Positions 10,294 through 32,767 of a DNA stretch of 50,020 bases are shown one piece after another. The notes beneath the pieces are model-generated. The model saw only the letters and a program-made list of their open reading frames with translations, was not told where the DNA came from and did no database searches. Source of the DNA: Nemertoderma westbladi (Eukaryota > Animalia > Xenacoelomorpha). The stretch covers positions 1 to 50,020 of the forward strand of contig JAUCBJ010002554.1 in assembly GCA_032718475.1 (NCBI GenBank). The letters are read 5' to 3'. Made by a program: the position numbers and the translations under genes. Each line of letters begins with the position of its first letter. Position 1 is the first letter of the stretch.

Positions 10294-11652
10294 GTGAGTG
10301 CAAATGAGGAATTCCAAACTGTTAATTATTATTATTCAATGGGAGTATCTTTTTAGATGATAATTATTATTATTCAATGGGAGTATCTTTTTAGATGATA
10401 ATTATTATTATTCATTCCCTATAAATTTTTGAATACTTTTTTTACAAATAAGGGGATTACAGGCATCAATACTACGAATACTACTGCTGTAAAGTACACC
10501 TGCTATTCGTATCTTCAGTCAGTAAACCTTTTTCGTTGGATTTCTGGTATTTACATCTACAGCTGCATTCACACACCACTCCTCCACACTGCGGTAGGTA
10601 TGGCTACCGGTTCTACATGGAAGCCATGTGTCTATGAATCTATTGCAAGGTGTCTTCTCCGGTAGAGGTTTACAAACAGGAAAAGGGTGCTGAAAAGGTA
10701 GTTGTGGAATAAATTTATAAAACTATTAGCAAAAGTCCGTACACGGGTATAAAGTATGTGTGTTTAAAGGAGCATAATTTATATACCGCCGGGATAAAAT
10801 AAGAAGAATCTTATATTCGGCAACTAGAGTATGTTGCCGGATGCATTGGTCCTATAATTTGGTAATAATGGAAATATTTAGGAATATATTTAATTTTAAT
10901 TATAATTTTGTTGTTTAAGTCATGTAAAATCAGTTATGTAGTTTCGTGAACATAAGGTTACCTAATTGAAACTCAAAAAATTTAAAAATTAAATCAGAAC
11001 AAAAGGATTACTTTTACAATAATATATTTCTTATTTACCAGTGAAAAAAAATCAGACTTACGGTCGAAATAAATATCATATATACTCTTATATAAGTATG
11101 AGTATGACGCCGCTGCGCTTGGCGACTTTTATTTTCCAACTTTATATCGCAGTGCGTCATTATTTCTCAGTTTGTCCCTATATCATACGTTTACGATGTA
11201 AGTACATTATGTCACCGTGTCTATACACCAATTAACCTATATATATATATACACTTAAATATACACTTATATCTATCTATACATCTAAATACACCATTCC
11301 CCAAATACATAATGAAGTTTATAGTTAATATTTATTAACTTCTTGCGAAATTATATCGTCCGTACGTAGCCCACTTTATTTAACACTTCACTATTTAAAA
11401 CATCAATGTCAAAATTCATTATGTCCAGTACATGCCATACCAATAATATAAACTCGAACATTTCGAACACTAACTTCCATAAATAATACACAATACGTAC
11501 ACGATATTGAGATTCAGTCGTCTAGTATGAAAAAACAATTATAATGGCAGAACAATTTGAATTACAATTACAAAACTAAATGTCATTTAAACACATAAAC
11601 TAATAACATTGTCCAACAATGCCATTACCAATAGATTCAATAATTCTGTTAA

Positions 11653-11872
11653 CTAATTACTATCTGGTCTGAGTTGAGATTCACATCGAGTTAGTAAACA
11701 ATACACAAGTAAACAAGTTTCTACAATTACAATAGCTGAAAGTATTTTACACCTGTAGGCCTTAAATGTTGTCCACCAACCGCCTTTGTACTGAACCAGT
11801 TCTGAATCTTTGACTTTCAGATGCGCAGAACATAAACTTTGTCCGCAGTCTGACTCACTTACAGCTTCATAT
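11653..11872 (-). CDS. Ig gene B exon 4: end of Ig4 plus C-terminal hydrophobic segment (putative tail anchor), stop
   Basis: Acceptor ttctttag|A TAT GAA. RYEAVSESDCGQSLCSAHLKV completes the F-G strands, followed by ILSAIVIVETCLLVYCLLT and about 11 polar residues. Confidence 0.75.
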
Positions 11873-12244
11873 CTAAAGAATAACAAATATATTTAACTTC
11901 ACTAACGTAACCTATATACATTATATATGTAGGCCTATATACGATGGAACTCATTGATCTTCATTATATAGACTATCGGTACATTAGTTTGTTTATTTTA
12001 GTAGATGTTTCAGACAATGGCTGACCTTAATGTTTAGTCTTACCAGCCAGCTGCCATATTTTAGAACAAGACATTGTAATATTGTGAATTCCCTTTTATG
12101 TAGGCCGACAATTTTCCAACTCAAATTACGTCAGTTAGTCAGCTAATGCATTACAGTAATACTGGAGAAAATGTACTTTAAGATATTATTATAGTGCTAA
12201 TGTTCAATAAAAATTACACAAAGGATAAAATATGAAATACAAAC

Positions 12245-12532
12245 CTTCCCTCATGGTGCTTTCCAACTTCTCTAATGATTAAAGCGTGGAGATTATCATC
12301 AACAACTATTGTGATATTCTTAGACGGATATAATTGTTTTCCGTTATGGAACCAAGAAACTTTCGGTTTCGGTTCACCAGACACCTCACATTCAAACTGA
12401 ACAAGATCTCCTTCTCTGCACACGGAATTCTTTATGGATTCAACGAATGTCGGTGGAGTTTCTTCTATACTCACAACTAATTGGGCAGAAGAAATAGTTC
12501 TTCCAACACCATTGTCAGCGATAGCTTCGTAT
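12245..12532 (-). CDS. Ig gene B exon 3 (288 nt I-set cassette)
   Basis: Acceptor ttatctag|A TAC GAA, donor GGA AG|gtttgt. Translation YEAIADNGVG...PPTFVESIKN...VQFECEVSGEPKPKVSWFHNG...LHALIIREV..HEGR. Confidence 0.9.
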
Positions 12533-12638
12533 CTAGATAATACATCATTGCAATTGGTTGTGTTAATGAGGTTCCGTCACTCCGTAATTGTTATAGAGAT
12601 AACACTTTATACCTTATATGCATCGCATATCCAACATT

Positions 12639-12974
12639 GAAGGTAGGACAATTCCGACTCGGACAATTCCGACTAATGAAAATTTCATTCGATCTCTGAA
12701 TCGGTCGGAATTGTCCGGGTCGGAATTGTCCGTGTCGGAATTGTCCGTCGGAATTGTCTGGGTCGGAATTGTCCAGGTCGGAATTGTCGTGGTCGGAATT
12801 GTCTGGGTTGGAATTGTCCGGGTCGGAATTGTCGTGGTCGGAATTGTCGTGGTTGGAATTGTCCAGGTCGGAATTGTCGTGGTCGGAATTGTCCGGTCGG
12901 AATTGTCCAGGTCGGAATTGTCCGGGTCGGAATTGTCTGGGTTGGAATTGTCCGGGTCGGAATTGTCCGTACAC
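12639..12974. mobile_element. Mutator/foldback-like non-autonomous element made of 15-bp repeats (gtcggaattgtccgg)
   Basis: Two inverted units (ggacaattccgac) at the left end face about 18 direct units. Flanked by the 9-bp direct repeat tccaacatt (12630-12638, 12975-12983). Confidence 0.7.
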
Positions 12975-13079
12975 TCCAACATTGTGTGATGATACATGAT
13001 GGTATTGCTGAATATAAAAATAAATCTTTTAATAACACCTACAAATTATATAACAAACTCATTTAGGAACATTCAATGG

Positions 13080-13140
13080 ACAGACTATACCGACAGACTA
13101 TACCGACAGACTATACCGACAGACTATACCCACAGACTAT
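13080..13140. repeat. 13-bp tandem repeat (cagactataccga) about x4.5
   Basis: Read directly. Confidence 0.85.
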
Positions 13141-13344
13141 CACCGAATCATAATCCTAAAAAGTAAAAGTATAGTTTTCTATTTCTATATTTTCTATTTT
13201 CTATATAATTACACATAAAGTCTTACGATTTATATCGAGTGCGGTCCCCCAAGAAATTTACTCCTCAGGGAAAACTGTTACTCATTTAGCTAATATTTTA
13301 GGATGCTAGGCAACGATGCGCCCTGGTTAGTCCCCCCTTTACAG

Positions 13345-13375
13345 CATTCAGGGATCGAACCCATGACCTCTAGAG
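13345..13375 (-). mobile_element. Remnant of a tRNA-derived SINE head (B-box)
   Basis: Minus strand gaggtcatgggttcgatccctg looks like a T-arm/B-box. No complete cloverleaf. Confidence 0.35.
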
Positions 13376-13460
13376 AGATGTGAATTCGAGGCAACGAATT
13401 TAACTACTACGGAAGGATTCGGATCTGAGTAGAAACTTCAAACAATTGATGTTCTTGGCA

Positions 13461-13588
13461 TTACGTGGTTGGTTGGGTACTAATAGAGTAGAGTTACGTG
13501 ATTGGTTGGGTACTAACAGAGTAGAGTTACGTGATTGGTTGGGTACTAACAGAGTAGAGTTACGTGATTGGTTAGGTACTAACAGAGT
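13461..13588. repeat. 33-bp tandem repeat about x4 (ttacgtgattggttgggtactaacagagtagag)
   Basis: Read directly. Confidence 0.85.
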
Positions 13589-13817
13589 ATAATACTGTTC
13601 AAAATGTACTGTTATTATAATTGTATTTTTAATTTTAAATTTAAATTGATCGCTGTTACCCAAGTTTTCGAGGTTTCTTAAATTAACCATCATCGTTGAC
13701 AGCGCAATATAGAACAAAGCCGCAATTCTTGTTCAGATGAACAATACCATGTTTATCATAATATATGAATGTATTTAAATAGTTGTTAACATGTTGATAA
13801 TGTTGCTCAACACTCAC

Positions 13818-14105
13818 CTTCCCTCATGATGTTTCTCAACTGTTCTAATAATCAATGCATGCAACTCTTCATCAACAACTATTGTGATATTCTTAGACGG
13901 ATATAATTGTTTTCCGTTATGGAACCAAGAAACTTCTGGTTTCGGTTCGCCAAACACCTCACATTCAAACTGAACCAGATCTCCTTCTCTGCACACGGAA
14001 TCGGTGATGGATTCGATAAAACTCGGTTCAGCTTCTTCGATATTGAGAACTAATTGCGCAGTTGACGATGTTTTCTCAATACCATTGTCAGCCACAGCTT
14101 CATAT
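13818..14105 (-). CDS. Ig gene B exon 2 (288 nt I-set cassette)
   Basis: Acceptor tttacag|A TAT GAA, donor GGA AG|gtgagt. Very similar to exon 3. Confidence 0.9.
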
Positions 14106-14291
14106 CTGTAAATATTTACATTATTTTCAGTTCGTTTGACTTTTTGTACCATGGAATGTTAGTGAATAGTGGCTGTTGAGTGAAAAGTACACGGTAACCT
14201 GTATTTGGATATAGATGGGACATTATCATAGACACTATGTATGACATGTTAGTGTTATACATTGGATTCGGGTTTGTTTTCTTCATGATTT

Positions 14292-14552
14292 TCGCAGATA
14301 GAGGGGGAAACTGGACGCAATAAAATCTATCCAGGGGAAATTAGACGCAAATAACAGCTGATTACTCTCAAAAATAAAACTTTAACCTGTTCTATTGTGT
14401 TTAGTTTATTGTTTTGGTTAAAATAACGTGCCACTGTAACCTGTTCCTTTCCCTAAATTGAGAATTTAACATTGAGGCGGGATATTAATTCGCCAAGGCA
14501 GGATTTGCGTCCAGTTTCCCCCCCCCCCCCCCCCCCCCACCCCCTTGTCTCG
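14292..14552. mobile_element. MITE with terminal inverted repeats (ggggaaactggacgcaa / ttgcgtccagtttcccc)
   Basis: TIR pair is visible. The interior is homologous in inverted orientation to about 20640-20850 (taacagctgattactc, tattgttttggtta, ccactgtaacctg). Confidence 0.7.
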
Positions 14553-15390
14553 ATTTTCGGGGAATTAATAGTTGGCATCAGAGCACCATACGCTGCAACA
14601 GCAATGTATCATAAAGTCAGAAGAGGGTCATTTCACGTTGGCGCTCATTGGGGACTTCATAACTTTTATTGAAATAATATATTACTTTATATACTCAAAT
14701 CGACTGCTTATTGCTCGCGGGAGTGAAATATTATTTGTAACACTATGTCAGCTTATCAGCGCAGCGTTCTGTTTCTATTTTCATAACGTAGCAATGTACT
14801 TTGCAGCGTTGCGGCCTTTAGGATGGAATGCTACAAAGTAATCACTAACTTAGTAACTTCTGAACTTGTCCTCAGTATTCTCCATTGCCGATAGCCATTG
14901 CAGGCTACGTGTAAGATTATTTACTGTACAGTTGTATCAGTAACTGCAACTTATTGCATAAAAAGGATACGACTTTCATCAATATTCCCAAATATTACAA
15001 TATTAAAGGTAATAATTGCGCGTTTCGAACGTCGATAAGTAGACATAATGTAACAAAATTACATACACCATTGTGTAAAAAGAGCACCAAATATTCAGCG
15101 TTTCTGACCCTTATATATTTATGTAAACCTCCTTCCCAGCACTCGCTCGGTACATAAATACCCTCGAGGTCAGAACGCTGATAAGTGCTACTTTTCATAC
15201 AATGATGTAAAATGGTTGTATATATTTATGTTATATTTTATAAAAATAATTTATATTTATATATGGAGAGACATACATTTTAGTTAAATGAGTTGAAATA
15301 AATAAATAAAAAATTTAAAAATAAATGGTTAAAATACTCCTTAAATTTTCTAGAACCAAATTGCTATATATGCCACATCGCTGTACTCAC

Positions 15391-15920
15391 AGGCCAATGT
15401 CGTCTTCAGTAGCATTCCGTATCATAAGCGCATGGTAACCATCTTCAGCAACAATTGTTATATTATTCGTTTCTTTTATTTTCTTTCCTTTATGATACCA
15501 AGAAACCCTTGATTTTTCGCCCTCTTGAACATCTGTTACTTGGCACTCGAACTGAACTAAATCCCCAACCATAAATGTTGTGTCTCGTATTTCGTCACCG
15601 AATCTAGGTGGTTCTACATTGTCTGGTAGATCGACGTTTAATCGAGCTGATGAAGTAACTTCCCCATCATCATTCTTAGCTACTATCTTGTAGACACCTT
15701 CATCGCTTCTCTCTACACCTTTGATAATCAGTGCAAATTGTTCTATATCTTGGACATAGATGATCTTCCTGGATGGTACGAGTTTTTTATCGTTATGATA
15801 CCAGGATACACTAACATCTGGGGAGTCAATGTCGCATTCGAACTGGACTATATCGTTTAGACGACCTGTACGATCTTCTGGGAAATGGGTGATTTCCGGT
15901 CCTACTTTCTGAATTGACAT
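15391..15920 (-). CDS. Ig gene B exon 1 (Ig1 plus most of Ig2). Full gene join(15920-15391,14105-13818,12532-12245,11872-11653), 441 aa
   Basis: ATG at 15920. I-set motifs VQFECD..WYH...ALIIKGV..DEGVYKIVAKN. Donor GGC CT|gtgagt in phase 2. No signal peptide. Confidence 0.85.
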
Positions 15921-17137
15921 ATTTCCAGGAAAATATAATAAAGTTTTTAAGTATATCAGTTGATACAGTTAATTAGTTGACATCTATAGTGAGCATCAAC
16001 TACACCCACGTGAGAATATTATATAATAAGATCTATTAAACAGACTTTTTGTCCAGAAGCAGCAACTAAATAAAACAATAACTTCGCAGTCACATAAAAT
16101 TGTTTTGCACCATAGTATTTATGTTTAACAACATTACATTAGATTTAATATTGTACATTATATAGTTGGACATTTTTGCAGTAGTATATTGCATAACAGT
16201 AGGTAGGTCTACACTAGGTGCTCGTACATAGATATTATGACAGCCTTTCGTACTGGGACTATTTAGATCGTCTATTAACACACACCTGTGTCAACTGGGG
16301 GTGGTTTCACTGTTGAGGGATTATTGCACTGCTTTGGCTATCTCTCTATATTTACACAAATTTACTATGGTAATATTCCAAGATTCATCACTTTATTGTT
16401 AATTAATAGCGTTTCGAAACGTTGGGTAATATGGTTGGGATTGCTTGAAAAATTTTGGCACATTCTAGCGATTACTTGAGCTAATTATTAATAGCTAGCT
16501 AGTTATGTGTTGTTCCCTCCCTTGTTGTTGACCTTGAAAAGTCTAACCCGGCTGCACAGCACCAACTAACTGTACCAAATGGTGAACGGTGAACCGGTGA
16601 ACCAAATGCAGTACAATAGTGCTCAACTTTGGTGTTCGTCTTTATCCTTTATCCCGGGGATTACGCACAAAGCCTGGTAAGATAATTTACAGTGCGGTCC
16701 AGCTCTCTACTCTTCTTCTCTGTCAGAGTATTCGGTATCGCGATAATCTGTAATATTTATTATCATACATAAATGTTTACCTGTAATTTTATATGAGTTT
16801 GATTCCGCTATAGGATTTGTTTTATAGTTTATGTTGTTATTAATGAGTTATGTTGTATCCATGCAATTTAACAAGATATTTAACTTACTTTTTCGAGTAA
16901 AAAAAGCGGTGTTTTCCGCTTACTTTTTTTTGCCGATTAATAGTCCTATAGTAAAGGAAAAATATAGTGGAAGAACGAATTAGTATATGTACAGGTTATA
17001 AGACAGAAATAAGCGCTATAAAACACTTAATAAAGATCAATTAAAAAAATAAAAAATCTTCATATAAAATTCCAATAAAAGTCGACCGAAAAGTGAAATC
17101 CTGGTATTCTTCACATGGGCGTCTAATCTTATCTAAA

Positions 17138-17612
17138 ATTATGTGTGAGCATATTAATTATGTGTGAGCATATTAATTATGTGTGAGCATATTAATTATG
17201 TGTGAGCATATTAATTATGTGTGAGCATATTAATTATGTGTGAGCATATTAATTATGTGTGAGCATATTAATTATGTGTGAGCATATTAATTATGTGTGA
17301 GCATATTAATTATGTGTGAGCATATTAGTTATGTGTGAGCATATTAATTATGTGTGCACATATTAATTATGTGTGAGCATATTAATTATGTGTGAGCATA
17401 TTAATTATGTGTGAGCATATTAATTATGTGTGAGCATATTAATTATGTGTGCACATATTAATTATGTGTGCACATATTAATTATGTGTGAGCATATTAAT
17501 TATGTGTGAGCATATTAATTATGTGTGAGCATATTAATTATGTGTGAGCATATTAATTATGTGTGAGCATATTAATTATGTGTGCACATATTAGTTATGT
17601 GTGCACATATTT
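17138..17612. repeat. 19-bp satellite (attaattatgtgtgagcat) about x25
   Basis: Read directly. Degenerate inverted units follow at about 17680-17800. Confidence 0.95.
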
Positions 17613-18645
17613 ATCGTCCAAATTCCATTTGTGTTCACTTCCCTGTTTTCAATTTCAATGTACACTCTAAAATAAGTGTGAACACATATAAATTAAGAGC
17701 ACAAGCACATAAATATGTGTACACACATAAATTAAGAACAGGAATACTTAAAATATGATCATGAACTCTTAAAATAAGAACAATAATTCTTAAAATAAGA
17801 ATATGGACTCTAAATACTCACAGCCGAGTGTAAACATCTGACAATACAGGAAACAGGACAGGGGGGGGGGGGGGGGGGGGGGGGCATTTACATCAAACAC
17901 TGAATAGACTTTAACCAACTTGGTAAGGCTTTTGTGATTTATCAATGGTGGTAACATAAAGTTGATGATATTCCCAACTCAAATTCAGAGGGCACAACTT
18001 TATCGTAGGTTTCTGAATGGAGTACTGTTGCCTTGGTTACCGAAGATCCACGTTATTTCGATACAACTTGTTCGACGAACCTATATAATGGTAGTTGTAA
18101 ACTGAAAGTTGGTAGTTGGTAATACGATTTTATATGTGTAGAACGTTCCACATCATTACGTTATATGCAAACAAGTAATGCAGAAGTCTCAGTCAGAAAC
18201 TAAGTAACCAGGAAATCAGAGGTGTAAACTGGAAATCCTATTTGTGACATATTTTTTTACAAATCTGCTTCTACGGTATAGTAAAGAGATACTCGATGAA
18301 GGAGGAACGGGGGGGGGGGGGTGGACTTATTAATTAATTAATTAATAATACCGTTATTACCGTTGCAGTTATTCATTGTTGTAAGTGAGTGATACGTTTC
18401 GACCGACGCGAACCGCAACCCGTATGTCTATTTACCCCAGACGATTGCAACATTTTGGTGTGCTGTCGATTATTTTTAGTCCCAGATATGTTTCTCTTCG
18501 GCAATGTTACTAGACGAATCGGGTTGAAAAAATATGAGGCATTAAAAGTGTCAGAAATGCGATTAAATACGATAGTTTCAGGTTAAACCAACTAGACCTC
18601 TAGCTTTGATAAACCGCAAATAATCATACATCGATAGGCATAATA

Positions 18646-19662
18646 GGTCTCAGGTCTTTATATCCCAGGGGTCTTTATATCCCAAGGGTCTTTATATCCC
18701 ACCCTAAAAAAATGGGTCTTTATATCCCAAGGGTCTTTATATCCCAGGGGTCGTTATATCCCACTTCTAAACTAAAATCGGGTCTTTATATCCCAGGGGT
18801 CTTTATATCCCAAGGGTCTTTATATCCCAGGGGGCTTTATATCCCACCAGTTATTCTGGGAGAATAAATTCTTTGGTGGGAAATTCAAACTTTTGGCTTG
18901 TACTGCTGTACAGTACTACTTACAGTACGGTGGAGGAGAGGGTGGACTAGGTGTTGGTGGAGGAGAGGGTGGACTAGGTGTTGGTGCCGGTGTGGGTGGA
19001 CTAGGTGTTGGTGGAGGAGAGGGTGGACTAGGTGTTGGTGGAGGAGAGGGTGGACAAGGTGTTCGTGGAGGAGAAGGTGGACTAGGTGTTGGTGGAGGAG
19101 AGGGTGGACTAGGTGTTGGTGGCGGTGTGGGTGGACTAGGTGTTGGTGGAGGAGAGGGTGGACTAGGTGTTGGTGGAGGAGAGGGTGGACTAGGTGTTGG
19201 TGGCGGTGTGGGTGGACTAGGTGTTGGTGGAGGAGAGGGTGGACTAGGTGTTGGTGGCGGTGGTCTAGGTGATAATGGAGGAGGCGGTGGATTAGGTGTT
19301 GGTGACAGGGTTTACCTTCAATTGTAAATATTTTAATAATTAATTTTTATCCTTAATTATTATACTAGTTATTGTTATATTTCCTCAGAAGTATATTTAT
19401 TGAAAAGTTGCGGGACCATTACAAAAAGGACCTACTGGATATAAAGCCCCCTGGGATATAAAGCCCCTTGGGATATAAAGCCCCTTGGGATATAAAGACC
19501 CCTGGGATATAAAGACTCGCTTTTAGTGTAGAAATGGGATATAAAGACCCCTGGGATATAAAGACCCTTGGGATATAAAGACCCATTTTTAAGGCTTTTT
19601 TTAAGATGGGATATAAAGACCCCTGGGATATAAAGACCCCTGGGATATAAAGACACCCAATC
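18646..19662. mobile_element. Foldback/Mutator-like element: inverted arms of 16-17-bp repeats (gggtctttatatccca) around a 27-bp GC-rich minisatellite
   Basis: Arms 18646-18846 and 19436-19662 are reverse complements. The 8-bp direct repeat gcataata flanks it at 18638-18645 and 19663-19670. Confidence 0.8.
18929..19305. repeat. 27-bp minisatellite (ggtggaggagagggtggactaggtgtt) about x13
   Basis: Read directly. Translates as GGGEGGLGV (+) or TPSPPSPPP (-). Confidence 0.9.
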
Positions 19663-20639
19663 GCATAATATAATACCGGTATAATCCACAGCTTGCAGCG
19701 CATAGCGGCGTGGCAAATAGAATTCAGGTGACAAACAATAGCATTTTATGTACTCGTTTGTATTAATTTTGGGTCTAATTGTATTTTTTCTACATCAATT
19801 GGACATCTACTGAGTACCAGACCCCCATCTTAGTAATGCCGTACAGCTATTTAATAAAGTTATAGAATCTTGAGTTCTTTCGAAGGTTTAACAAATTAAA
19901 GGTTGCTTTATGTATTTTTAAGCCAATAAATAAAAAATAATTAATATATACTATATACATTCTGATAAATTACATATCAAATATTTACATAGATGAATTT
20001 ACCTACTAAAATGTTTACAATATCATCATTAAGTAAAAGAGAAATTCTAAAACATCTAAAATCGTCAGTTGTAGTCATTCTAAATTATGATTTTGCTCTT
20101 GAAAATCATAAGAAGATATTTTAGTTAGTAAAATAAAAGTCTTTATTATATTGTAAATATTTCCTATCTAGTATTTATTGAGTTAATATTAAAAACTTAT
20201 TTATATATACTCTATATATACACTTATTTTCTGTTTTTGCTACAACAACTTGAAAACAACTAACTTTTCTTTGTCTTTTAAATAACTAACAATTACTTAT
20301 ATTATAACTTATATTACTTATATATGCATCAATACATTTACTATAAATATAAATAAGCGGTACCGGTACCTAAATAGTTTTGTCGCTAGATGGGGGGGTT
20401 GTAGAATCAGCCTCAGTGAATAACAGAGGGCGCATAATTTTTAGTACAAATTTTAAAATTTAATTTAAAATTTACAACTTGGATCACTCAATAGAAAAAT
20501 CAATTCATAAAAAGATAATAACTAGAAGGGTTCTGCTCTGTGTCCGTTTGTCTGTTAGCTAGGAACAGTACGAACATTCAGACAAACAAATCAGAAAAGT
20601 CCTGCTAATATATTTCGTTGGCTGTGTCTCCCTGAGAAG

Positions 20640-20850
20640 GGGGGGGGGGGGGGGGGGCTTGATATAAAATCCATTGATTTTTTATAAAAATCTTATCTCA
20701 ATATTAAATTATCAATTATGGGAAAAGAGCAGGTTACAGTGGTTCATTATTCTAACCAAAACAATAAACAAATGTTAATACAACATTATACTGTTTATTT
20801 TTCGTGAGTAATCAGCTGTTATATACGTCGATTTTCCCCTGGAGATGGAT
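20640..20850. mobile_element. Degenerate inverted copy of the 14292-14552 MITE family
   Basis: Shared blocks caggttacagtgg, taaccaaaacaataaac, gagtaatcagctgtta, ttcccctgga. Confidence 0.65.
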
Positions 20851-20944
20851 GACCCTATCTGGTAGCCCCACATCCTAATATTAAGATTATTTACAGAATG
20901 TGTACATCCTTAATATTGAGAAGTTTAATTTATCATTTATGAAT

Positions 20945-21308
20945 TTACACCATTAAACAATAGGAAGCGATTTCGTCTCGTGTAAGATAGTCCCTTTTCC
21001 CCTGACCTATAACCAGCAGGACTTTATGCTTGGCTGCAGACAGTTCATTGTGACTCAATTCCTGATTCCGCAGGTCGAATAGATCCTTTAGGAATGTTAT
21101 TAATTCAGTACCGTTGAGGTTCCCATCCGAATCTTTATCGTAATAGGCAAAGACTTCATTGTACTCGGCTCGTGTCAGCCGCAAACCAAATCGAAACTTC
21201 CTCATAACATTTACGTAGCTATCGGTTTCTACGGGTTTCTTCACTTCCAGATTTAGTGTGGCGGACAAAGTTTGATTTCCTTCGGAATTCTGTGCCACTG
21301 CATCATAT
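20945..21308 (-). CDS. Ig gene A exon 3: end of Ig3 plus calretinin/calbindin-like C-terminal EF-hand pair, stop
   Basis: Acceptor ttttag|A TAT GAT. EF loop DKDSDGNLNGTE within LTRAEYNEVFAYY...LITFLKDLF. Second, degenerate hand ...KRDYLTRDEIASYC. Confidence 0.85.
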
Positions 21309-21814
21309 CTAAAATAAATAACATTCAACTGAATATTTTTTACTAACTAGTTAAACATCTCCCTTTGTTAGGAATAATCACAGTTTTGAATGTTCGTGCA
21401 AACAATATCACGGAATATAGTGTATTAATTAAGGTACCGGTACTCCAACTCGGATACCGGTATCCGGGTTCCAACTCCTCAAACAAATTACTCTGAATTA
21501 AAGTAGAAACACAAAATTTGTATCCGTTAGTACCTAAACTTTTTGCACACATTTTTTCATTCCATATCCCGTCACTTCAAAGCAATACTCTAATGTTCAA
21601 ATAAATATTATTAAAGATGTATTTCTTTCAAATGTAAATTAAAGAATAATAAGAGTGTTCTAAAGGTTGTGTAAGATTTCTTAAATTCTAGTTTTTTTTA
21701 CTAAGGTTCATTCAGGTTTTCTATGATTTTATGGTTACTGCTACCACACAGGAGCGAGAAACTTGTACGTCCTCTGGAAGTCCTCTAGCTCCTATGTAGG
21801 TCTAGAATACTCAC

Positions 21815-22102
21815 CTGCCTGTGTGCTCCTGAGATACTTCTCTTATTATTAAAGCATGTAAATCTTCATCTACAACTATTGTGATATTCTTAGACGGCTG
21901 TAGTCGCTTTCCATTGTGGTACCAAGAAATGTCAGGTTTTGGTTCACCAGTTACTTCGCACTCAAACTGAACTAGATCTCCGGATTTACATAGATTGTCG
22001 TTCATCTTTCCAACAAATGTCGGTGGCGATTCCTGAGCTTCGACATTCAGTGTCGCTGTTGATTTGGCTACATCAATTCCGTTATCAGCTACAGCATCGT
22101 AT
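21815..22102 (-). CDS. Ig gene A exon 2 (288 nt I-set cassette)
   Basis: Acceptor tcttttag|A TAC GAT, donor GGC AG|gtgagt. Paralogous to gene B exons 2 and 3. Confidence 0.9.
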
Positions 22103-22182
22103 CTAAAAGATTTAAGTTCAACATCTCTTTTAATTAGTTGGGGACTACAAACACTAATGATTTGTATACAAAAATGTGATAT

Positions 22183-22416
22183 CAAAGCAAACAGTTGGCC
22201 GAGGCCGGAGGCGAGCCGAAGGCTCCTCTTTCGATAGCTGCTACCCGAAGGTAGGGGTGGGCGCTACTCCTATCCCTTGATTTGCTCCCATTAATTTTCT
22301 GGTTCTCATTTTATCAACAGCAGTGGATGAAAAGCTTAGTGGAACCTGGCGGGGTTGAACCTACAACCAATAGACTGCAGGCCCGGCGCTGAAACTAACT
22401 GAGCGAGCGCCCCACC
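22183..22416 (-). mobile_element. tRNA-derived SINE in intron 1 of Ig gene A
   Basis: Minus-strand head gggcgctcgctcagttag...ggttcaaccccgcc (A and B boxes). Central taagcttttcatcc...gataaaatgagaacc. GC-rich tail. Near-perfect 11-bp flanking repeat aaa(t/c)gtgatat. Confidence 0.75.
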
Positions 22417-22786
22417 AAACGTGATATTATACATCAAGTGATAAGCAGTGAGTTAGCTAATCTGTAACCCTAGATGAATGGAAGGTATTCTAAAGAGACT
22501 AAACTAGGAGAAGACAAAGTTTGTATGTAAGGGCAGTTAAACGAATAAATATATCGTTGCCAAGCGAATAAGCTTTTAAGACTCTCTGTTAAGGTTCTCT
22601 ATTAAATAGATAAGGCTTTTAACATTAATACATATATTTACTTAAGCACCTTCGCCTTCAATTCAATTATTTGAAACAGTTAAAACAATAATACTTAGAA
22701 CAATAATAAATAAAAGTGTATGGTGTTAGATAGTGTAATATTGAAACAAATCAATAATAAAATGGTATTTTACAATAATTACTAAC

Positions 22787-23301
22787 ATTCCTTTATGTTC
22801 CCTTTCAACTGTTCTTATAATGAGAGCCCGTAGATTGTCATCTTGTACTATTGTTATATTTTTCGATGCTTCCAGCTTCCTACCATCGTGGTACCATGTG
22901 ACTAACGGTTGGGGTTCGCCAGTAACTTCGCACTCGAATTGAACTAAATCCCCGGCCCGACAGGATGTATTGCGGATATGTTCGAGGAATACCGGTGGTT
23001 CATTGACTACCTCGAACCCGAGCCGTGCCGAACCAGAAACCCGGCCTTCACTGTTCTCCGCAACGAATTTGTAGACCCCCTCATCCCCCGGTTTAACTCC
23101 CTTTATTATCAACGCGAATTGCTCAACATCTTGAACGTATATAATTATGTTACTGGGCTCTAGTAGCTTGTCTTCGTGGTACCAAGTTATCTTTGCCTCT
23201 GGAATGTTGAGGTCAAAGTCGAATTGGACGAAATCCCCGACTCTAGCGATGAGATTGTCTTCGGGAAAGTGCTGGATTATTGGTGCGACAACTCGACTCA
23301 T
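22787..23301 (-). CDS. Ig gene A exon 1 (Ig1 plus most of Ig2). Full gene join(23301-22787,22102-21815,21308-20945), 388 aa
   Basis: ATG at 23301. Paralogous to gene B exon 1 (HFPED, YVQD.EQFALIIKGV, DEGVYK). Donor GGA AT|gttagt in phase 2. No signal peptide. Confidence 0.85.
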
Positions 23302-24380
23302 GTTCCAATGATATAGACAAAGTTATGTTTAATAAAATAAGCGAAATAAGATATAAATACAAATTTAGTTGAATTGTACTAAATCTAACAAAATGTCTAC
23401 TGAACAGTTCCGAGCATGTAACTTTTTTCACTAATTTTTATACTTAAATAAAAACGAATACACATACAATAATCATTATAAATACTACTTATACCCCTTA
23501 TCCTTATATACCAATGGTTTAGTGTACAAGTAAAATTATTTTTTAATTATATAATAAATGGTTTATAGAAAATAACGGTATTTCATATTTTTAACTTTTC
23601 TGTTGTTTTCAAATGATCAGTTGTAAATGTACAACATGTAGACATTATAGAACAAATTATACGAAGAACACAATGTGTAGCTCTTATTTGTGACTCGAAC
23701 TAAATTGTAAACCTGAATTTGAATCCTATAAATGTAGATTAGATATGTAGCCATTGGATTGGATATTTCAAATTAGCATCTATTATTTTTAAGATAACTG
23801 TTTGTAAGTTATTGCCAAGAATATCACTATTAAACACACACACACCTAACAACAGTGGGTAAAACAATACTATTGAATTGTGTAGGGCAGTAAGGGTTAA
23901 TCTATCTACTTTACCTTTGATTGAATAACCGCCAGTCAACATAACCATAGCCTATGTATGTAAGTATACCTTCTATATGTCCGTGCCAATAAGAGCTAAT
24001 TGTTGGTAGGGTTGTTAGTAATACTATTGATATATTGTGGGGGATTATATTTTTTTTATAATTATTGCATTCATAGACAGATATTCCACACAAAGATCGA
24101 GAAATAATCCAGCACTCTATTCATTTGATCCTGAGGTTTTATAACTTTCAGTAATGACCATAGAAGGATTAGTTTTTGAATATCTCACAGATTATGTTGT
24201 ATTCTTGGATGTTGGAAAATGTTTTGCACCTAACCACTTAAATGCAAAAAAGAAGTAATGTAACAATAAAGTGCATTCTACAGATTCAACATTATCTATC
24301 TCCTGATACTGCATTGCTTTCTGCTGTCCCCAAACCAGATATTAAACATTAAAAAAACTGTCCATCTAAAAATTAATTGT

Positions 24381-25548
24381 TAGCAGTTTAACCTGCCAAA
24401 TTTAGGTGTCTTCTAGGTTATAAATCGACTTTAGCCTATAACAAGTATTTGATACACATAAAGTTACATTAGCCGAAGCCAGCCTATGCGCGATCATTCA
24501 CCCACGGTTAAGGGAGACTGGATTCGGATGCTCTGACCTTATTGCGGTGTAGACTTACTGTACTATTCGATTGATCGTTAATATATAATCTCTGACAAAT
24601 ATTATTCACTTTCGGGAAATATTAACAGTTCCTTTAGGACGTGGCGCTCTAAGTATGTAAACAGAGTTATGACTTACACTAAACACAACGGGATGGCTAA
24701 TGATTTTCGTATAAAGCGCATTCTTTAGGAAATGCTTTGTTATCTGTCACACTCATGCACAATACCTCACACTGCTGCACACTGATCTGCCGACCTTCAC
24801 TAAATTTGATCATATATAAGGAGAACAGCAACTGACACATGTAGGGTCTATGAAATAGCATTCAATTCACTGCAAAACCACTATAATGTAAGTCGCAATT
24901 GCTATATGTAACCGGTCTCTCTAACCTTCAGTATATCAAGAAGATTGGGGTTTTATGATTATTTATCGATATTCTCCAAATACAACAACATATCCATCAA
25001 CTTCTAACAATTAATAACCGACAGTAAATAGCAGTAAAATAATGCGGTGAAAGGTATGTATAGTATGATATGCTGAGTTGATGTGACTTGACTTGCGATA
25101 ACAGTTATACGTTTCTATAATCAAAGCCGTTCTAATGTTTGGCTAAAGTCTGAAACACAGAATAATTCCAAAGCCGATGTTCTGGGCTCAGGAAAAAAGG
25201 TAAACAAAGACCATAATGCATTGCGCGATCTTCCGTAGGCTTCTGTACAAGATAAAATGAAAATCGCTCTGATTGGTCGAGCGAGCCGAACAAAGAAAGC
25301 GAAAAAGCTCCACATCGACATATCAGCTGATAGATGTCGTCATCTGAACTACACTGTATTAAGAGTATTTTGGCGTATTGCGGCATAAAATGGCTTGTTA
25401 TGTCCGCTAAAGTACACATACAGAAAAAATGGCTTTTTATGTCCACTAAAACACCTACACAGTAAGAAAACGGCTTTTTATGTCCGCTAAAACACCTACA
25501 GAGTACTTTGCGGGGAAAATGACTAGCTAGATCCGCAAAAGCCTTTAC
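24381..25548. mobile_element. Uninterrupted copy 2 of the unclassified interspersed repeat, 9-bp flanking direct repeat
   Basis: Homologous to 125-800 plus 5720-5932. attaattgt at 24372-24380 and 25549-25557. No obvious TIR. Confidence 0.7.
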
Positions 25549-26445
25549 ATTAATTGTCCAAAGCCATTAAATTTTTATTATTACACAAAAGTGATCTTTA
25601 ATAATAAAGCAATCAGTCATCCCCCCTCTCCATCTTTTCTGATCAAAAGGCTGCAGTTCTTGTTATTAGCTACCGGTAGCTTTGTACAACACATTACCAA
25701 TAATAAGATAAGATAGTAAGAATAGTAAGATAGTAAGAATCTAATAATAAGATAATAAGATGCAGATATTTATTTATGGTAATTTTAATTTAACAAACAT
25801 CTGGCGGAACTGGTGAGATGGTAAAATATAAGGTTTTAACAAATTAAAATAATTGAAGAATTAATGATGGTTAATGCAGAAAGAAAATAATACAATGTAA
25901 GAAAAAACAATAACATTAATTAAGGAAAAAATTTCATAAATTGTTATTATTTCATCTAGAATTTAATGTGGATTTCAAATCTGAAAACCGCAAAGAGAGA
26001 TCTCTTTTAGTTCTTTAGTTATCCTGGAATATCTGGCAGTCAATCTTTCTGTCAAAATGTAAGAAAGACAGACAGACAACCTACCGACGGACAGACTAGA
26101 TTCCACCAAAAATTAAACCGACAATGGAAATGAAGTCAGCGTCCCCGAAATCACCCGAAATTATAATTTTAGCTCGGTGGTTTGCTTCCTTCCTGTCAGA
26201 CACTATAAGGTAATTTTGCGCGGGAAAGTTTGAATTTTGGAGATAATTATCTCTGAATGACATTTAATCACACGAAAAATACTATTCCTCCACCATTTCA
26301 TAACCGTTTTGGGCAATTTTTTATTTATATGAAAGGTAATTTTATAGGCTTTAATCAATTTCAACCAGTTTTCTGAATTTCATAATATTTTCCCACTTTT
26401 TTTTATGAAAAATTAGAAACAACGTGGGGTGTTAAATTTTTACTA

Positions 26446-26632
26446 ATTTCTCTCGATATTTTTACTCTCAAAATTTTTAGACTCGATATATTTTACTCTC
26501 GATATTTTAACTCTCGATATTTTTACTCTCGTTATTTTTACTCTCGATATTTTTACTCTCAAAATTTTTAGACTCGATATCTTACTCTCGATATTTTTAC
26601 TCTCGATATTTTTACTCTCGATATTTTTATTC
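26446..26632. repeat. 15-bp tandem repeat (tttttactctcgata) about x12
   Basis: Read directly. Abuts the RTE 3' tail. Confidence 0.85.
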
Positions 26633-26633
26633 T

Positions 26634-28530
26634 CTACTACTACTACGAGGATCGGCATGCTGCATTGCAGCTGCATTTTTAAGAATGCTGTGCCGGCGTG
26701 TCGACAAAATTGCGCCGCCACAACTCCCTATCACCCATGACATTTGCTAGATCATCCGTTCTTCAAGGACAGTGTCGTTTAAGATGCCTCTCAAGAAAGT
26801 CATGGGCTGTCCACCGTGCTTATTCACTCCATGAGGCTGCCAAAGCACAAGATTATTCACTGGCTGGTCCTCACGGCGAAAGCAATGTCCTGCAAAGCGG
26901 AGGCGACTTTGTTGTAGCGTCAAGCTTACCGGCGTAACATTCTTGTGAATGTGCCATAGAGCAGTACTGGAACTACTGCTGCTCTAAATAATCGGACCTT
27001 AAGTTTCCAATTAATTCTCTGTGACTTCCAAATCCTGGAAAGCATATTCAAGGCTGCCCATGCCTTTCCCTTACGTATTCGAAGGTCCTCACCTGACTTC
27101 CGGATCCATGATCGCAGGTAACAGAAGTCGTCCACATGCTCAAGCATACCATCCTTTGAGCTTATGCTCATCTGGTCAGAAACTTGCTGAGGACTTTCAA
27201 AGTTAACTGTCAAAATTTTGGTCTTTTTGGAGTTAATAAAGAGACCAACACTAGAATCAGCATGTTCTAATGAGCTGAGGAGCCGTTGGGCTCCCTCTAG
27301 TGATTCTGAGAGTACTCCTAAGTCATCAGCAAAGTCTAGATCAGTTAGGTACTTGGCAGGATTTCCTCGACTTCTGGAGCCAATAGATGGAGTTACCATC
27401 ACCCCTTCATCATTGTGATGATCTAAGGACATGCGTAGAACATAGTCAACCACAATTATGAACAAGAATGGCGCAAGTGTGTCTCCTTGCAGGACTCCCC
27501 ATAATTTTTTATAAATAATATTTTGATAACTCTTCAATTATCCTTCTAAGTGCCACAATGGGCTCCATGGTCCAACAACCTTTACGGAACCCATTCTGAT
27601 TTCCACGGAGCAGTCTCTCAATGGGATCCCTGGTGCGATTTAATAGAATTCTATTGTATAGCTTTGCAGCAATCCAGATTAATGAGATTCCCCGAAAAGA
27701 ACCATAGAGTGTTAGGTTACCCTTCTTGGGAACTGGCACCAACTTATTTGTTTTCATTTCTTGTGGGACTCTTGTTGTTCTGTACATGACTACTATGATG
27801 GGATAGATGAGCTTTAAACACTCAGGTACTTTAAAGACCTTAGGGGGAACACCATCTACTCCACTGGTACGATTGGTCTTAATGCTCTTTGCAGCAGTCT
27901 TTACTTCTGCAAAGGAGATATCGCCAATGGGAATATCTGGGAGTTGAGACTCAGACAGTTTTACTTCTATAAAGTTATCAGGTAATACCCTGTCATTATT
28001 GAGGAGCTTTTCAAAGTGGGCCTTCCAACCATTGAGGCGATCGGCTGGTGATTCAGCCTTAACCTTGGTGGTTGGTTGGCTTTTCCGCCCAGTAAGCAGA
28101 TTGATCGATTTCCATGCCTGGGATGATTGCCTGCTGTCGTCAGCATCATTGATGGCATCAACCTGTTGGTTTATTAGCTCCTGTAGATTAGCAGAGTACT
28201 GCCTGTTCAGGGACCTAGATGCAGCCTTAACTGCATTCTTAACTGTAGTCTGTTTGAGTCGGGACTCTTTCTGCGCCTTATGAAGGTCATTTCGGCACTT
28301 CTGAATTTTGTTGTCAGTCCAGGGGGCCCTTTTCCTGTTTCGAGGGTATACAGGAACTGTTTCTGCAGCTGCTAACTTAACTGCTTCTGTAAAGGCAGTA
28401 TAGCCCTCACAGTGATCTGCCGCCTCAGAGGCAAGAGCCTCATACCTGTTGCTCAGCTGTAGTGTGAAGCTGGATCTCACACTTGGCTGTTGCAACAGAG
28501 AGGACCAGTCATGCCGCGGCAAGGCAGATT
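26634..28530 (-). mobile_element. 5'-truncated, internally deleted RTE-clade LINE (RT pseudogene)
   Basis: VPVPKKGNL...FRGISL...AAKLYNRILLNR...NQNGFRKG (27509-28522), then a frameshift/deletion to GVLQGDTLAPFLF, LDFADD, KVRLFRAAV..VLLYG (26926-27537). Short (GTA)n tail at about 26634-26646. Confidence 0.9.
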
Positions 28531-28789
28531 TTCACGTTTTGTAACAGCATGACTAGTCTATTATAAACACCTTCTAATAACACTGAATTATTACTAATCC
28601 AACTTTCTGCACCGTAAATAACTTTCGCTACCACAGACGCTTCAAATACTTACTTCTTAAACCGTAAAGGGTGGCGTGTTTTGCCCGGGCGAAAAAATTG
28701 CAAATATAATAATCGCGTTTGTTAGAGAAACCCAAATATATTTGTCTGGAATCCATGTTGTACATGTACACTGTGTGGAGGTTCTAACA

Positions 28790-31700
28790 GGGAGCAACTA
28801 GTTTCTGTAACTTGTTGCAGGACTCCTCACACACAGAAACTTGTTGCTGGACCCCCTCACACACAGAAACTTGTTGCTGGACTCCTCACACACAGAAACT
28901 AGTTGCTGGAACTTTCCGAAACTTGTTTCTGTGTGTGAGGAGTCCTGCAACAAGTTTCTGTGTGTGAGGAGTCCAGCAACAAGTTTCTGTGTGTGAGGAG
29001 TCCAGCAACAAGTTTATGTGTGTGAGGAGTCCAGCAACAAGTTTCTGTGTGTGAGGAGTCCAGCAACAAGTTTATGTGTGTGAGGGAGTCCAGCAACAAG
29101 TTTATGTGTGTGAGGAGTCCAGCAACAAGTTTATGTGTGTGAGGGGGTCCAGCAACAAGTTTCTGTGTGTGAGGAGTCCAGCAACAAGTTTATGTGTGTG
29201 AGGGGGTCCAGCAACAAGTTTATGTGTGTGAGGAGGTCCAGCAACAAGTTTATGTGTGCGAGGAGTCCAGCAACAAGTTTCTGTGTGTGAGGAGTCCAGC
29301 AACAAGTTTATGTGTGTGAGGGGGTCCAGCAACAAGTTTCTGTGTGTGAGGAGTCCAGCAACAAGTTTATGTGTGTGAGGGGGTCCAGCAACAAGTTTAT
29401 GTGTGTGAGGAGGTCCAGCAACAAGTTTATGTGTGCGAGGAGTCCAGCAACAAGTTTATGTGTGCGAGGAGTCCAGCAACAAGTTTCTGTGTGTGAGGAG
29501 TCCAGCAACAAGTTTCTGGGTGTGAGGAGTCCAGCAACAAGTTTCTGTGTGTGAGGAGTCCAGCAACAAGTTTATGTGTGTGAGGAGTCCAGCAACAAGT
29601 TTCTGTGTGTGAGGGAGTCCAGCAACAAGTTTCTGGGTGTGAGGAGTCCAGCAACAAGTTTCTGTGTGTGAGGAGTCCAGCAACAAGTTTATGTGTGTGA
29701 GGAGTCCAGCAACAAGTTTCTGTGTGTGAGGAGTCCAGCAACAAGTTTCTGTGTGTGAGGAGTCCAGCAACTAGTTTCTGTGTGTGAGGGAGTCCAGCAA
29801 CAAGTTTCTGGGTGTGAGGAGTCCAGCAACAAGTTTCTGTGTGTGAGGAGTCCAGCAACAAGTTTATGTGTGTGAGGAGTCCAGCAACAAGTTTCTGTGT
29901 GTGAGGAGTCCAGCAACAAGTTTCTGTGTGTGAGGGAGTCCAGCAACAAGTTTATGTGTGTGAGGAGTCCAGCAACAAGTTTATGTGTGTGAGGAGTCCA
30001 GCAACAAGTTTCTGTGTGTGAGGAGTCCAGCAACAAGTTTCTGTGTGTGAGGGAGTCCAGCAACAAGTTTCTGTGTGTGAGGAGTCCAGCAACAAGTTTA
30101 TGTGTGTGAGGGGGTCCAGCAACAAGTTTATGTGTGTGAGGAGTCCAGCAACAAGTTTCTGTGTGTGAGGAGTCCAGCAACAAGTTTATGTGTGTGAGGA
30201 GTCCAGCAACAAGTTTCTGTGTGTGAGGGGGTCCAGCAACAAGTTTCTGTGTGTGAGGGAGTCCAGCAACAAGTTTCTGTGTGTGAGGAGTCCAGCAACA
30301 AGTTTATGTGTGTGAGGGGGTCCAGCAACAAGTTTCCCACGTGTGAGGAGTCCAGCAACAAGTTTGTGTGTGTGAGGAGTCCAGCAACAAGTTTCTGTGT
30401 GTGAGGGAGTCCAGCAACAAGTTTCTGTGTGTGAGGAGTCCAGCAACAAGTTTATGTGTGTGAGGGGGTCCAGCAACAAGTTTATGTGTGTGAGGAGTCC
30501 AGCAACAAGTTTCTGTGTGTGAGGAGTCCAGCAACAAGTTTATGTGTGTGAGGAGTCCAGCAACAAGTTTATGTGTGTGAGGGGGTCCAGCAACAAGTTT
30601 ATGTGTGTGATGAGTCCAGCAACAAGTTTATGTGTGTGAGGAGTCCAGCAACAAGTTTCTGTGTGTGAGGAGTCCAGCAACAAGTTTATGTGTGTGAGGA
30701 GTCCAGCAACAAGTTTATGTGTGTGAGGGGGTCCAGCAACAAGTTTATGTGTGTGAGGAGTCCAGCAACAAGTTTCTGTGTGTGAGGAGTCCAGCAACAA
30801 GTTTATGTGTGTGAGGAGTCCAGCAACAAGTTTATGTGTGTGAGGAGGTCCAGCAACAAGTTTATGTGTGTGAGGAGTCCAGCAACAAGTTTATGTGTGT
30901 GAGGAGTCCAGCAACAAGTTTATGTGTGTGAGGAGTCCAGCAACAAGTTTATGTGTGTGAGGAGTCCAGCAACAAGTTTCTGTGTGTGAGGAGTCCAGCA
31001 ACAAGTTTCTGTGTGTGAGGAGTCCAGCAACAAGTTTATGTGTGTGAGGAGTCCAGCAACAAGTTTATGTGTGTGAGGAGTCCAGCAACAAGTTTATGTG
31101 TGTGAGGAGTCCAGCAACAAGTTTGTGTGTGTGAGGAGTCCAGCAACAAGTTTATGTGTGTGAGGGGGTCCAGCAACAAGTTTATGTGTGTGAGGAGTCC
31201 AGCAACAAGTTTATGTGTGTGAGGAGTCCAGCAACAAGTTTATGTGTGTGAGGAGTCCAGCAACAAGTTTATGTGTGTGAGGGGGTCCAGCAACAAGTTT
31301 ATGTGTGTGAGGAGTCCAGCAACAAGTTTCTGTGTGTGAGGAGTCCAGCAACAAGTTTCTGTGTGTGAGGAGTCCAGCAACAAGTTTATGTGTGTGAGGG
31401 GTCCAGCAACAAGTTTATGTGTGTGAGGAGTCCAGCAACAAGTTTCTGTGTGTGAGGAGTCCAGCAACTAGTTTCTGTGTGTGAGGAGTCCAGCAACTAG
31501 TTTCTGTGTGTGAGGAGTCCAGCAACAAGTTTCTGTGTGTGAGGAGTCCAGCAACTAGTTTCTGTGTGTGAGGAGTCCAGCAACAATTTTCTGTGTGTGA
31601 GGAGTCCAGCAACAAGTTTATGTGTGTGAGGAGTCCAGCAACAAGTTTCTGTGTGTGAGGAGTCCAGCAACAAGTTTCTGTGTGTGAGGAGTCCAGCAAC

Positions 31701-32695
31701 AAGTTTATGTGTGTGAGGAGTCCAGCAACAAGTTTATGTGTGTGAGGAGTCCAGCAACAAGTTTATGTGTGTGAGGAGTCCAGCAACAAGTTTGTGTGTG
31801 TGAGGAGTCCAGCAACAAGTTTATGTGTGTGAGGGGGTCCAGCAACAAGTTTATGTGTGTGAGGAGTCCAGCAACAAGTTTATGTGTGTGAGGAGTCCAG
31901 CAACAAGTTTATGTGTGTGAGGAGTCCAGCAACAAGTTTCTGTGTGTGAGGAGTCCAGCAACTAGTTTCTGTGTGTGAGGAGTCCAGCAACTAGTTTCTG
32001 TGTGTGAGGAGTCCAGCAACAAGTTTCTGTGTGTGAGGAGTCCAGCAACTAGTTTCTGTGTGTGAGGAGTCCAGCAACTAGTTTCTGTGTGTGAGGAGTC
32101 CAGCAACAAGTTTCTGTGTGTGAGGAGTCCAGCAACTAGTTTCTGTGTGTGAGGAGTCCAGCAACTAGTTTCTGTGTGTGAGGAGTCCAGCAACAAGTTT
32201 CTGTGTGTGAGGAGTCCAGCAACTAGTTTCTGTGTGTGAGGAGTCCAGCAACAATTTTCTGTGTGTGAGGAGTCCAGCAACAATTTTCTGTGTGTGAGGA
32301 GTCCAGCAACAAGTTTCTGTGTGTGAGGAGTCCAGCAACAAGTTTCTGTGTGTGAGGAGTCCAGCAACAAGTTTATGTGTGTGAGGGGTCCAGCAACAAG
32401 TTTATGTGTGTGAGGAGTCCAGCAACAAGTTTCTGTGTGTGAGGAGTCCAGCAACTAGTTTCTGTGTGTGAGGAGTCCAGCAACTAGTTTCTGTGTGTGA
32501 GGAGTCCAGCAACAAGTTTATGTGTGTGAGGGGGTCCAGCAACAAGTTTCTGTGTGTGAGGAGTCCAGCAACTAGTTTCTGTGTGTGAGGAGTCCAGCAA
32601 CAAGTTTATGTGTGTGAGGGAGTCCAGCAACAAGTTTCTGTGTGTGAGGAGTCCAGCAAACAAGTTTCAGAAATAAGTTGATCCGCGTGAGGGGG
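28790..32695. repeat. About 3.9-kb 29/30-bp satellite (gtgtgtgaggagtccagcaacaagtttct, roughly 125-130 copies) inside a TIR-bounded MITE-like element
   Basis: About 3.5 inverted units at 28810-28910 face the direct array 28925-32665. The ends agcaactagtttctgtaacttgttgc and gcaaacaagtttcagaaataagttgat are imperfect inverted repeats. Confidence 0.9.
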
Positions 32696-32767
32696 ACATA
32701 AAAGATAAAATCCTAGATTTCTGGAACTGGCGAAATATATAATCGACCGTTTAACTTCTGTTTTCAG

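Follow-up and report, generated by a model that had tools for sequence, protein, structure and literature searches.

In the window analyzed here (the whole stretch of 50,020 nucleotides of Nemertoderma westbladi contig JAUCBJ010002554.1), a gene on the minus strand, gene 1, encodes three I-set immunoglobulin (Ig) domains followed by an EF-hand pair of 86 residues. On its profile scores, the pair is likely the last third (domain C, EF5–EF6) of a hexa-EF-hand protein. The combination of Ig domains with a calbindin-type domain is apparently undescribed and is built from two known kinds of parts. Proteins of the hexa-EF-hand family are known to stand alone. Provided that gene 1 is expressed, the target-binding third domain of that family can become a module carried by a titin-type scaffold, and gene 1 offers a natural isolated EF5–EF6 pair for probing what role the EF5 site, with its low affinity, plays in calretinin. 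With gene 1 and its neighbor gene 2 as paralogues whose C-termini are swapped, this step of evolution can be traced. Fusions of domains that are restricted to one lineage are common among invertebrates and, here, both parts are well known.

Gene 1 consists of exons 23301–22787, 22102–21815, and 21308–20945 (minus strand), with GT–AG ends and both introns in phase 2. The joined exons (1167 nt) form an open frame of 388 amino acids plus a stop. Coding exon 1 (22787..23301) carries the ATG, Ig1 (about 23286–23011), and strands A to E of Ig2. Exon 2 (21815..22102; 288 nt, phase 2–2) carries the F–G hairpin of Ig2 and strands A to E of Ig3. Exon 3 (20945..21308) carries the F–G hairpin of Ig3 (to about 21242), a linker of 12 residues (21241–21206), the EF-hand tail (20948..21205), and the stop. 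Candidate poly(A) hexamers occur at 20794..20929 on the same strand (ATTAAA from 20929 and AATAAA from 20799); the DNA being AT-rich, their weight as evidence is small.

Each intron splits an Ig domain at one position, directly ahead of the F strand, so that exon 3 starts with the F–G hairpin of Ig3. Exon 3 begins with 21 codons that a profile of the window's other six hairpins, with this one left out, recognizes as the hairpin; in a set of 1559 six-frame segments their E-value is 2.3e-4, and that of the best non-Ig segment is 0.82. The end of Ig3 and the EF-hand tail are encoded by that single exon and, since hairpin and tail are read in its frame, the fusion is independent of any predicted splice. 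The tail also has a coding-like base periodicity (GC1 0.52, GC2 0.30, GC3 0.48; 0.29 downstream). In simulated neutral decay to 60% identity, with database members as stand-ins for the donor sequence, 39 of 600 tails stay stop-free and none has a canonical EF5 loop. A chance open frame joining the hairpin to the tail was rejected on these analyses.

The Ig domains score far above the Pfam cut-off for I-set (PF07679, 23.7 bits), with 96.7 bits in two stretches for exon 1 and 61.2 bits for exon 2. In I-set domains, Y-x-C is frequent at the F strand. In Ig1 to Ig3, either Y-x-F or Y-x-A is present instead, and the F-strand Cys is missing from all three; the B-strand Cys is kept in Ig2 and Ig3 and absent from Ig1. 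A first-pass annotation of this DNA, made from the letters alone, had described a spliced 388-residue protein with three I-set domains without F-strand Cys, no signal peptide, and an Ig/EF-hand junction within one exon, and each of these points is borne out. Folding exon 1 from its single sequence gave a poor model (pLDDT 46), which was set aside. Between Ig domains, dN/dS is 0.12–0.31 in five of six pairs (dS is saturated in the sixth); synonymous sites are far more diverged than replacement sites, which argues for purifying selection on both genes.

The best PDB sequence matches of the Ig exons are to titin, with the extracellular receptors Robo, DSCAM, and DCC close behind. Gene 1 shares with the titin tandems (PDB 1ya5, 2a38, 3b43) the succession of I-set domains with short linkers, besides the best PDB scores; in the titin pair of PDB 6fwx, the F-strand Cys is missing as in gene 1. 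The first-pass annotation had taken Cys-poor I-set domains as a hallmark of titin-type proteins. This holds for some titin domains, but not for all, both states being present among the PDB matches. Palladin, myotilin, and telokin are further titin-type cytoplasmic I-set proteins, and gene 1 has in common with this group the lack of a signal peptide and of a B–F disulfide. Gene 1 differs from titin-type proteins in having only three domains, with no fibronectin-III, kinase, or PEVK part, and in the acidic character of its Ig domains (pI 4.6–5.1). We know of no titin-type cytoplasmic I-set protein with an EF-hand tail.

Proteins belonging to the calbindin subfamily contain six EF-hand motifs in three pairs (PMC3296734); gene 1 has two EF-hands, not six, and these are fused to Ig domains. 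The tail is homologous across the whole EF pair to the hexa-EF-hand family (invertebrate calbindin-32 or Cbp53E and secretagogin, vertebrate calbindin-D28k and calretinin; PDB 2f33, 8ban, 8bav, 6jlh). Against PDB sequences, the top seven matches are of the calbindin/secretagogin type, with calmodulin lower, and the best stretch is residues 183–250 of calbindin (PDB 2f33; domain E-value 4.9e-7). The tail aligns with family members over about 80 residues, and in another alignment its identity to them is 21%–34%. An HMMER scan of exon 3, run in full, returned 206 matches. Of the 150 listed, those with the best single-domain scores are hexa-EF-hand proteins or fragments; they carry the names calbindin-32-like or secretagogin-like in their sources and come from cnidarians, from echinoderms, and from a nemertean. 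The general Pfam profiles are just missed (EF-hand_1, 24.3 vs. a cut-off of 25.4 bits; EF-hand_7, 28.4 vs. 30; EF-hand_6, 23.6 vs. 25). These scores under the cut-offs, and a canonical loop in only one EF-hand of the two, qualify the EF-hand tail proposed in the first pass. Gene 1 has one pair only, and no other EF-hand segment is present in the six frames of the window.

Profiles of domains A, B, and C were built from 28 full-length hexa-EF-hand members, 10 of the 28 rows coming from one 90% cluster. The tail scores 59.3 bits with C, 40.1 with B, and 38.3 with A; in leave-one-out trials, 81 of 83 domains are placed correctly, both errors being toward C. An assignment to domain A or B was rejected on these scores. 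Against secretagogin alone, B is slightly higher than C (22.0 vs. 21.1 bits), and the structural comparison by VIA also places the tail on domain B of secretagogin. The assignment to C is likely, not certain, because B scores as well as C in that comparison. The C-terminus of the tail coincides with that of the hexa-EF-hand proteins, which favors domain C.

As to type, the proposal of EF5–EF6 of calretinin/calbindin is upheld for the domain, the C profile being the best, and has to be shifted for the subfamily, toward calbindin-32/secretagogin. A three-residue gap in the EF6 loop occurs in all 10 rows taken to be of the vertebrate calbindin/calretinin type and is absent from the tail, whose length fits the invertebrate calbindin-32/secretagogin type rather than vertebrate calretinin. 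In the tree, the tail falls outside the vertebrate calbindin/calretinin clade with support of 99/98, a provisional placement, and its position among the remaining rows is unresolved. Its branch is long (2.54 vs. a median of 0.31). The long branch and the scores under the Pfam cut-offs suggest that the tail may have drifted from the function of the family.

The AlphaFold2 model of the tail (from a 40-row alignment; pLDDT 81) has four predicted helices in two helix–loop–helix motifs. The nearest solved structures are those of secretagogin (Foldseek TMq 0.76–0.82, E-value about 3e-3; VIA Z 11.6, rmsd 2.2, 81 residues aligned). This closeness is not independent evidence, since the alignment fed to the prediction came from the hexa-EF-hand family.

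The EF5 loop (residues 325–336; 21104..21139, minus strand) is canonical, with D, D, D, G at positions 1, 3, 5, 6 and E at position 12. The EF6 loop (residues 369–380; 20972..21007, minus strand) is full length; its ligand positions 1, 3, and 5 are taken by G, G, and R, and it is predicted not to bind Ca2+. From the loop residues, Ca2+ binding in the tail is to be expected of EF5 alone. The two halves differ also in conservation. Of 16 family-conserved columns in the EF5 half, 12 are kept, the four changes being conservative (39 family rows keep 9–16), and of 10 in the EF6 half, three are kept (family rows, 4–9); the 39 rows were chosen as matches to the tail, which biases them toward agreement in EF5. 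In the 29 other family rows, the invertebrate members, the EF6 loop is also of full length, and in 25 of these 29 it is canonical. A full-length loop without ligands makes the loss in the tail look independent of the vertebrate one. An active-type EF5 beside an inactive-type EF6, as predicted here from the residues, recalls calretinin, in which EF6 is inactive and Ca2+-dependent interactions are mainly via EF5 (PMC3913827). The EF5 site of calretinin has low affinity (Kd of 36 µM, or 0.5 mM by another method) (PMC3913827).

In secretagogin, the groove of the Ca2+-loaded C domain binds helices of SNAP-25 and syntaxin-4, and the change of Met229 to Glu blocks the binding of both peptides (PMC11032447). 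Met229 aligns with Leu344 of the tail and Val233 with Arg348; once the alignment is extended by one and four residues, Arg198 and Leu270 correspond to Thr313 and Cys385. The four groove positions are thus Thr, Leu, Arg, and Cys in the tail, one kept as a hydrophobic core residue and one partly. With the groove residues only partly kept, binding of SNAP-25 as such is not predicted, and the partner of the tail is probably not a SNARE.

The reading that we prefer, with about an even chance of being right, is that of a soluble cytoplasmic adaptor. The rod of three titin-type I-set domains would hold the protein on a scaffold. EF5 would take up a single Ca2+ with low affinity, by analogy with the unpaired EF5 of calretinin beside its dead EF6 (Kd 36 µM or weaker). 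Upon a local rise in Ca2+, close to Ca2+ sources, the loaded tail would then bind a partner helix. The Ca2+ dependence of target binding is suggested by the role of domain C, which is the groove for peptides in secretagogin and the site of interaction in calretinin; on the same findings, the captured piece would be the interaction domain of the family and not one of its high-affinity buffer pairs. From the likeness to titin, one may guess at a cytoskeletal location, in muscle or elsewhere, in line with the Ca2+-sensing cytoskeletal or sarcomeric adaptor that the first pass had proposed. In invertebrates, calbindin-32 is for the most part neuronal, and in the fly it has some expression in adult muscle (PMC4500412, PMC3296734).

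The tail could alternatively act independently of Ca2+, as a structural cap or a constitutive binding module, or as a tethered one-site buffer, EF5 being kept for folding. This is unlikely, though several features fit it: EF6 is dead, two to three of the mapped groove residues are unlike those of secretagogin, and the branch is long. Constitutive binders are known among EF-hand pairs; EF3–4 of α-actinin binds the titin Z-repeats constitutively. However, folding needs both loops equally, and yet the EF5 ligands are all kept while those of EF6 are lost. One low-affinity site per 44 kDa would also make a poor buffer.

A comparable arrangement exists in amphioxus, where, in CaVP–CaVPT, a small protein of muscle that has Ig folds in tandem works together with an EF-hand Ca2+ sensor. 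There, two chains are joined via an IQ motif and the sensor is of the calmodulin type, whereas gene 1 is a single chain with a calbindin-type domain and no match to the IQ family in its exons (Pfam); the likeness is one of analogy.

Gene 2, a tandem paralogue, lies 5 kb downstream from gene 1 on the same strand (11653..15920; exons 15920–15391, 14105–13818, 12532–12245, and 11872–11653; 441 amino acids). It has four Cys-poor I-set domains, phase-2 introns positioned as in gene 1, and no EF-hand. The Ig1 domains of the two genes are mutually closest (58%), as predicted by a duplication of the whole gene, and Ig3 and Ig4 of gene 2 result from a later duplication (73%). Read through, its last exon ends with a hydrophobic 19-mer (mean 2.36), 11 residues ahead of the stop, with basic residues on its N-terminal side in the fashion of a tail anchor; a hydropathy of 2.36 is reached at 124 of 51,252 non-coding start points (0.24%; the points are not independent). 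On this profile the C-terminus of gene 2 is likely a membrane tail anchor, with the uncertainty that a possible donor (three of five consensus points) precedes the hydrophobic segment. Ahead of the anchor lies an aromatic and basic segment; over the final 32 codons, G + C occurs at 14, 13, and 2 of positions 1, 2, and 3.

The proximity of the two genes raises another organization, quite unlikely in our view, in which they form one transcription unit for a seven-Ig membrane-anchored form, the Ig3–EF-hand protein being a short and perhaps minor alternative isoform. The strand is the same, the distance is 5 kb, and a GT donor at 21214 within exon 3 (phase 0) matches in phase a CAG acceptor at 15909. 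That donor has three of five points on a simple consensus count, like three of the seven modeled donors, but it lacks both the G at −1 and the G at +5, and all seven modeled donors have at least one of these. The ATGs of the two genes are, moreover, at equivalent positions, both with A at −3, and the closest pairing is that of Ig1 with Ig1, both of which point to two genes. A single unit would leave the fusion of Ig and EF-hand domains standing.

The product of gene 1 is likely cytoplasmic, as the first pass had supposed. No signal peptide is found in its frame (the top 19-residue hydropathy is 1.07, and 0.58 near the N-terminus), an in-frame stop lies 22–24 nt above the ATG, and a B–F disulfide is impossible in all seven Ig domains of genes 1 and 2. 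The contrary view, that the protein is secreted or luminal via an unseen upstream signal-peptide exon, with the EF-hands working at high Ca2+ as in FSTL4 and FSTL5, appears very improbable. The EF-hands of these two proteins are not known to be of the calbindin family. FSTL4 and FSTL5 carry both kinds of domain in one chain and are secreted, with a follistatin/Kazal module (PMC8391210). Such a module is absent from the three exons of gene 1 and from 148 other frames of the window (Pfam). On the minus strand at 23948–23846, there is a short ATG-initiated frame with a hydrophobic stretch and then a GT donor, a weak candidate for a signal-peptide exon: its ATG is at 23948 or 23942, its donor at 23845 (phase 1), and its hydrophobic 10-mer scores 2.3. 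It is the one candidate in 21.7 kb of the upstream minus strand, against none in 14.4 kb of the control strand. Five N-x-S/T sequons in gene 1, three of them at an equivalent place in repeated domains, and the likeness of the C-terminal hydrophobic segment of gene 2 to that of a type I protein would also suit secretion. However, the exon would have to be joined at 23292 to a GAG acceptor that is preceded by another AG, when all seven modeled acceptors are TAG or CAG, and at the same threshold no such candidate exon exists between genes 1 and 2. The lack of any possible B–F disulfide speaks against it too and, in gene 2, the basic residues precede the hydrophobic segment, so that the positive-inside rule leaves the Ig domains cytoplasmic.

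The absence of described relatives was anticipated by the first-pass annotation, and our protein, metagenome, and literature searches gave no protein with both parts. With exon 3, none of 185 candidates among proteins of 211–2000 amino acids was confirmed as a homologue. With exon 1, a word-limited search of proteins of 301–2000 amino acids, which in that size range also bears on orthology to a named member of the titin type (titin, MLCK, obscurin, palladin, myotilin), gave one out of 509, an Ig/Fn3 protein of 1520 residues (26% identical). The 150 listed of the 206 HMMER matches to exon 3 are all EF-hand proteins, none of which matches the Ig part (best E-value 0.15), and no Ig domain is present in the 37 of these 150 scanned with Pfam (best five families each). 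Two metagenome scans for the fusion confirmed none of 199 and none of 159 candidate stretches, and exon 3 finds only generic EF-hand clusters in the Atlas (0.78–0.79). No description of an Ig plus calbindin-type architecture was found in the literature searched, mostly outside subscription journals. The LAMP-type gene of the same window has only distant relatives in the protein collection searched (27%–48% identity over part of the length, in vertebrates, an echinoderm, and arthropods), which indicates that close kin of the animal are absent from it. The search blanks therefore have limited weight, and the fusion may span a whole unsampled group. The missing orthologue in protein and metagenome searches, the single assembly, and the LINE remains and satellites nearby would suit a fusion that arose recently by accident, a gene that is silent, or a false join in the assembly, in each case without a function under selection. 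This view has little chance of being correct against 388 open codons, intact splice sites, dN/dS well below 1, the coding-like periodicity of the tail, the selective keeping of EF5, and a host homeobox frame that closes cleanly over the whole region and so argues against a misjoin.

As to origin, a tandem-Ig gene would have acquired, within its last exon, the final third of a hexa-EF-hand gene, and capture as a 5′-truncated retrocopy and capture at the DNA level appear about equally probable. In human calretinin, exon borders fall in the EF5–EF6 region, and deletion of exons 8–9 truncates the protein at 192 amino acids (PMC3913827). With such borders, the intronless tail and the shared C-terminal end fit a 5′-truncated retrocopy. 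LINE reverse transcriptases are present in the window. The idea is weakened by the two LAMP-type genes of the window, which are intronless too. A bolder proposal, to which we give only a small chance, is a lineage-specific two-gene system inside the homeobox intron, where the Ca2+-gated peptide-binding domain of secretagogin, captured by one paralogue as a truncated retrocopy, and the membrane-anchored paralogue, as partners or isoforms, would constitute a membrane-tethered Ca2+ switch. If this were so, the captured domain, separated from the pairs that normally accompany it and with one of its sites gone, would by nature act as a single-site sensor of low affinity, tuned to Ca2+ microdomains.

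Both genes lie antisense within the first intron (10294–32767; 22,474 nt) of a homeobox gene on the plus strand (9950..33230; exons 9950–10293, 32768–32885, and 33066–33230; 208 amino acids open), which may be rough-like. Its split homeodomain was detected in the Pfam scan of the 148 other frames of the window. The first intron divides the N-terminal arm, which exon 9950–10293 completes across the intron; the second intron falls ahead of the WFQN motif of helix 3. On the minus strand, convergent with the 3′ end of the homeobox gene, a basic low-complexity frame of 118 codons (34465–34109) has an AG ahead of its ATG and ends in a stop. It matches no Pfam family at an E-value of 0.001; possibly it is the final exon of a different gene. 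It was tried as a 5′ extension of gene 1 and rejected, since the frame ends in a stop and no fitting acceptor lies above the ATG of gene 1.

Farther along the plus strand are two tandem genes of the LAMP family (41594–42541 and 45004–47082), apparently intronless and with one luminal domain each; the second contains a mucin-like 30-bp repeat in about 41 copies. A LINE occupies 966–5016 (plus strand), with an ORF1-like frame (407 amino acids, Cys/His-rich) and an endonuclease–reverse transcriptase frame broken near its end. Broken LINE reverse-transcriptase remains occur at 26929–28531 (minus strand), in the homeobox intron upstream of gene 1, and similar-looking remains in the vicinity of 6560–7270 (plus strand). 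A 29-bp satellite of about 128 copies (28925–32668) ends 100 bp ahead of homeobox exon 2, and further satellite arrays are present at 12703–12969, 17137–17603, 18653–19584, 40055–41119, and 44231–44612.
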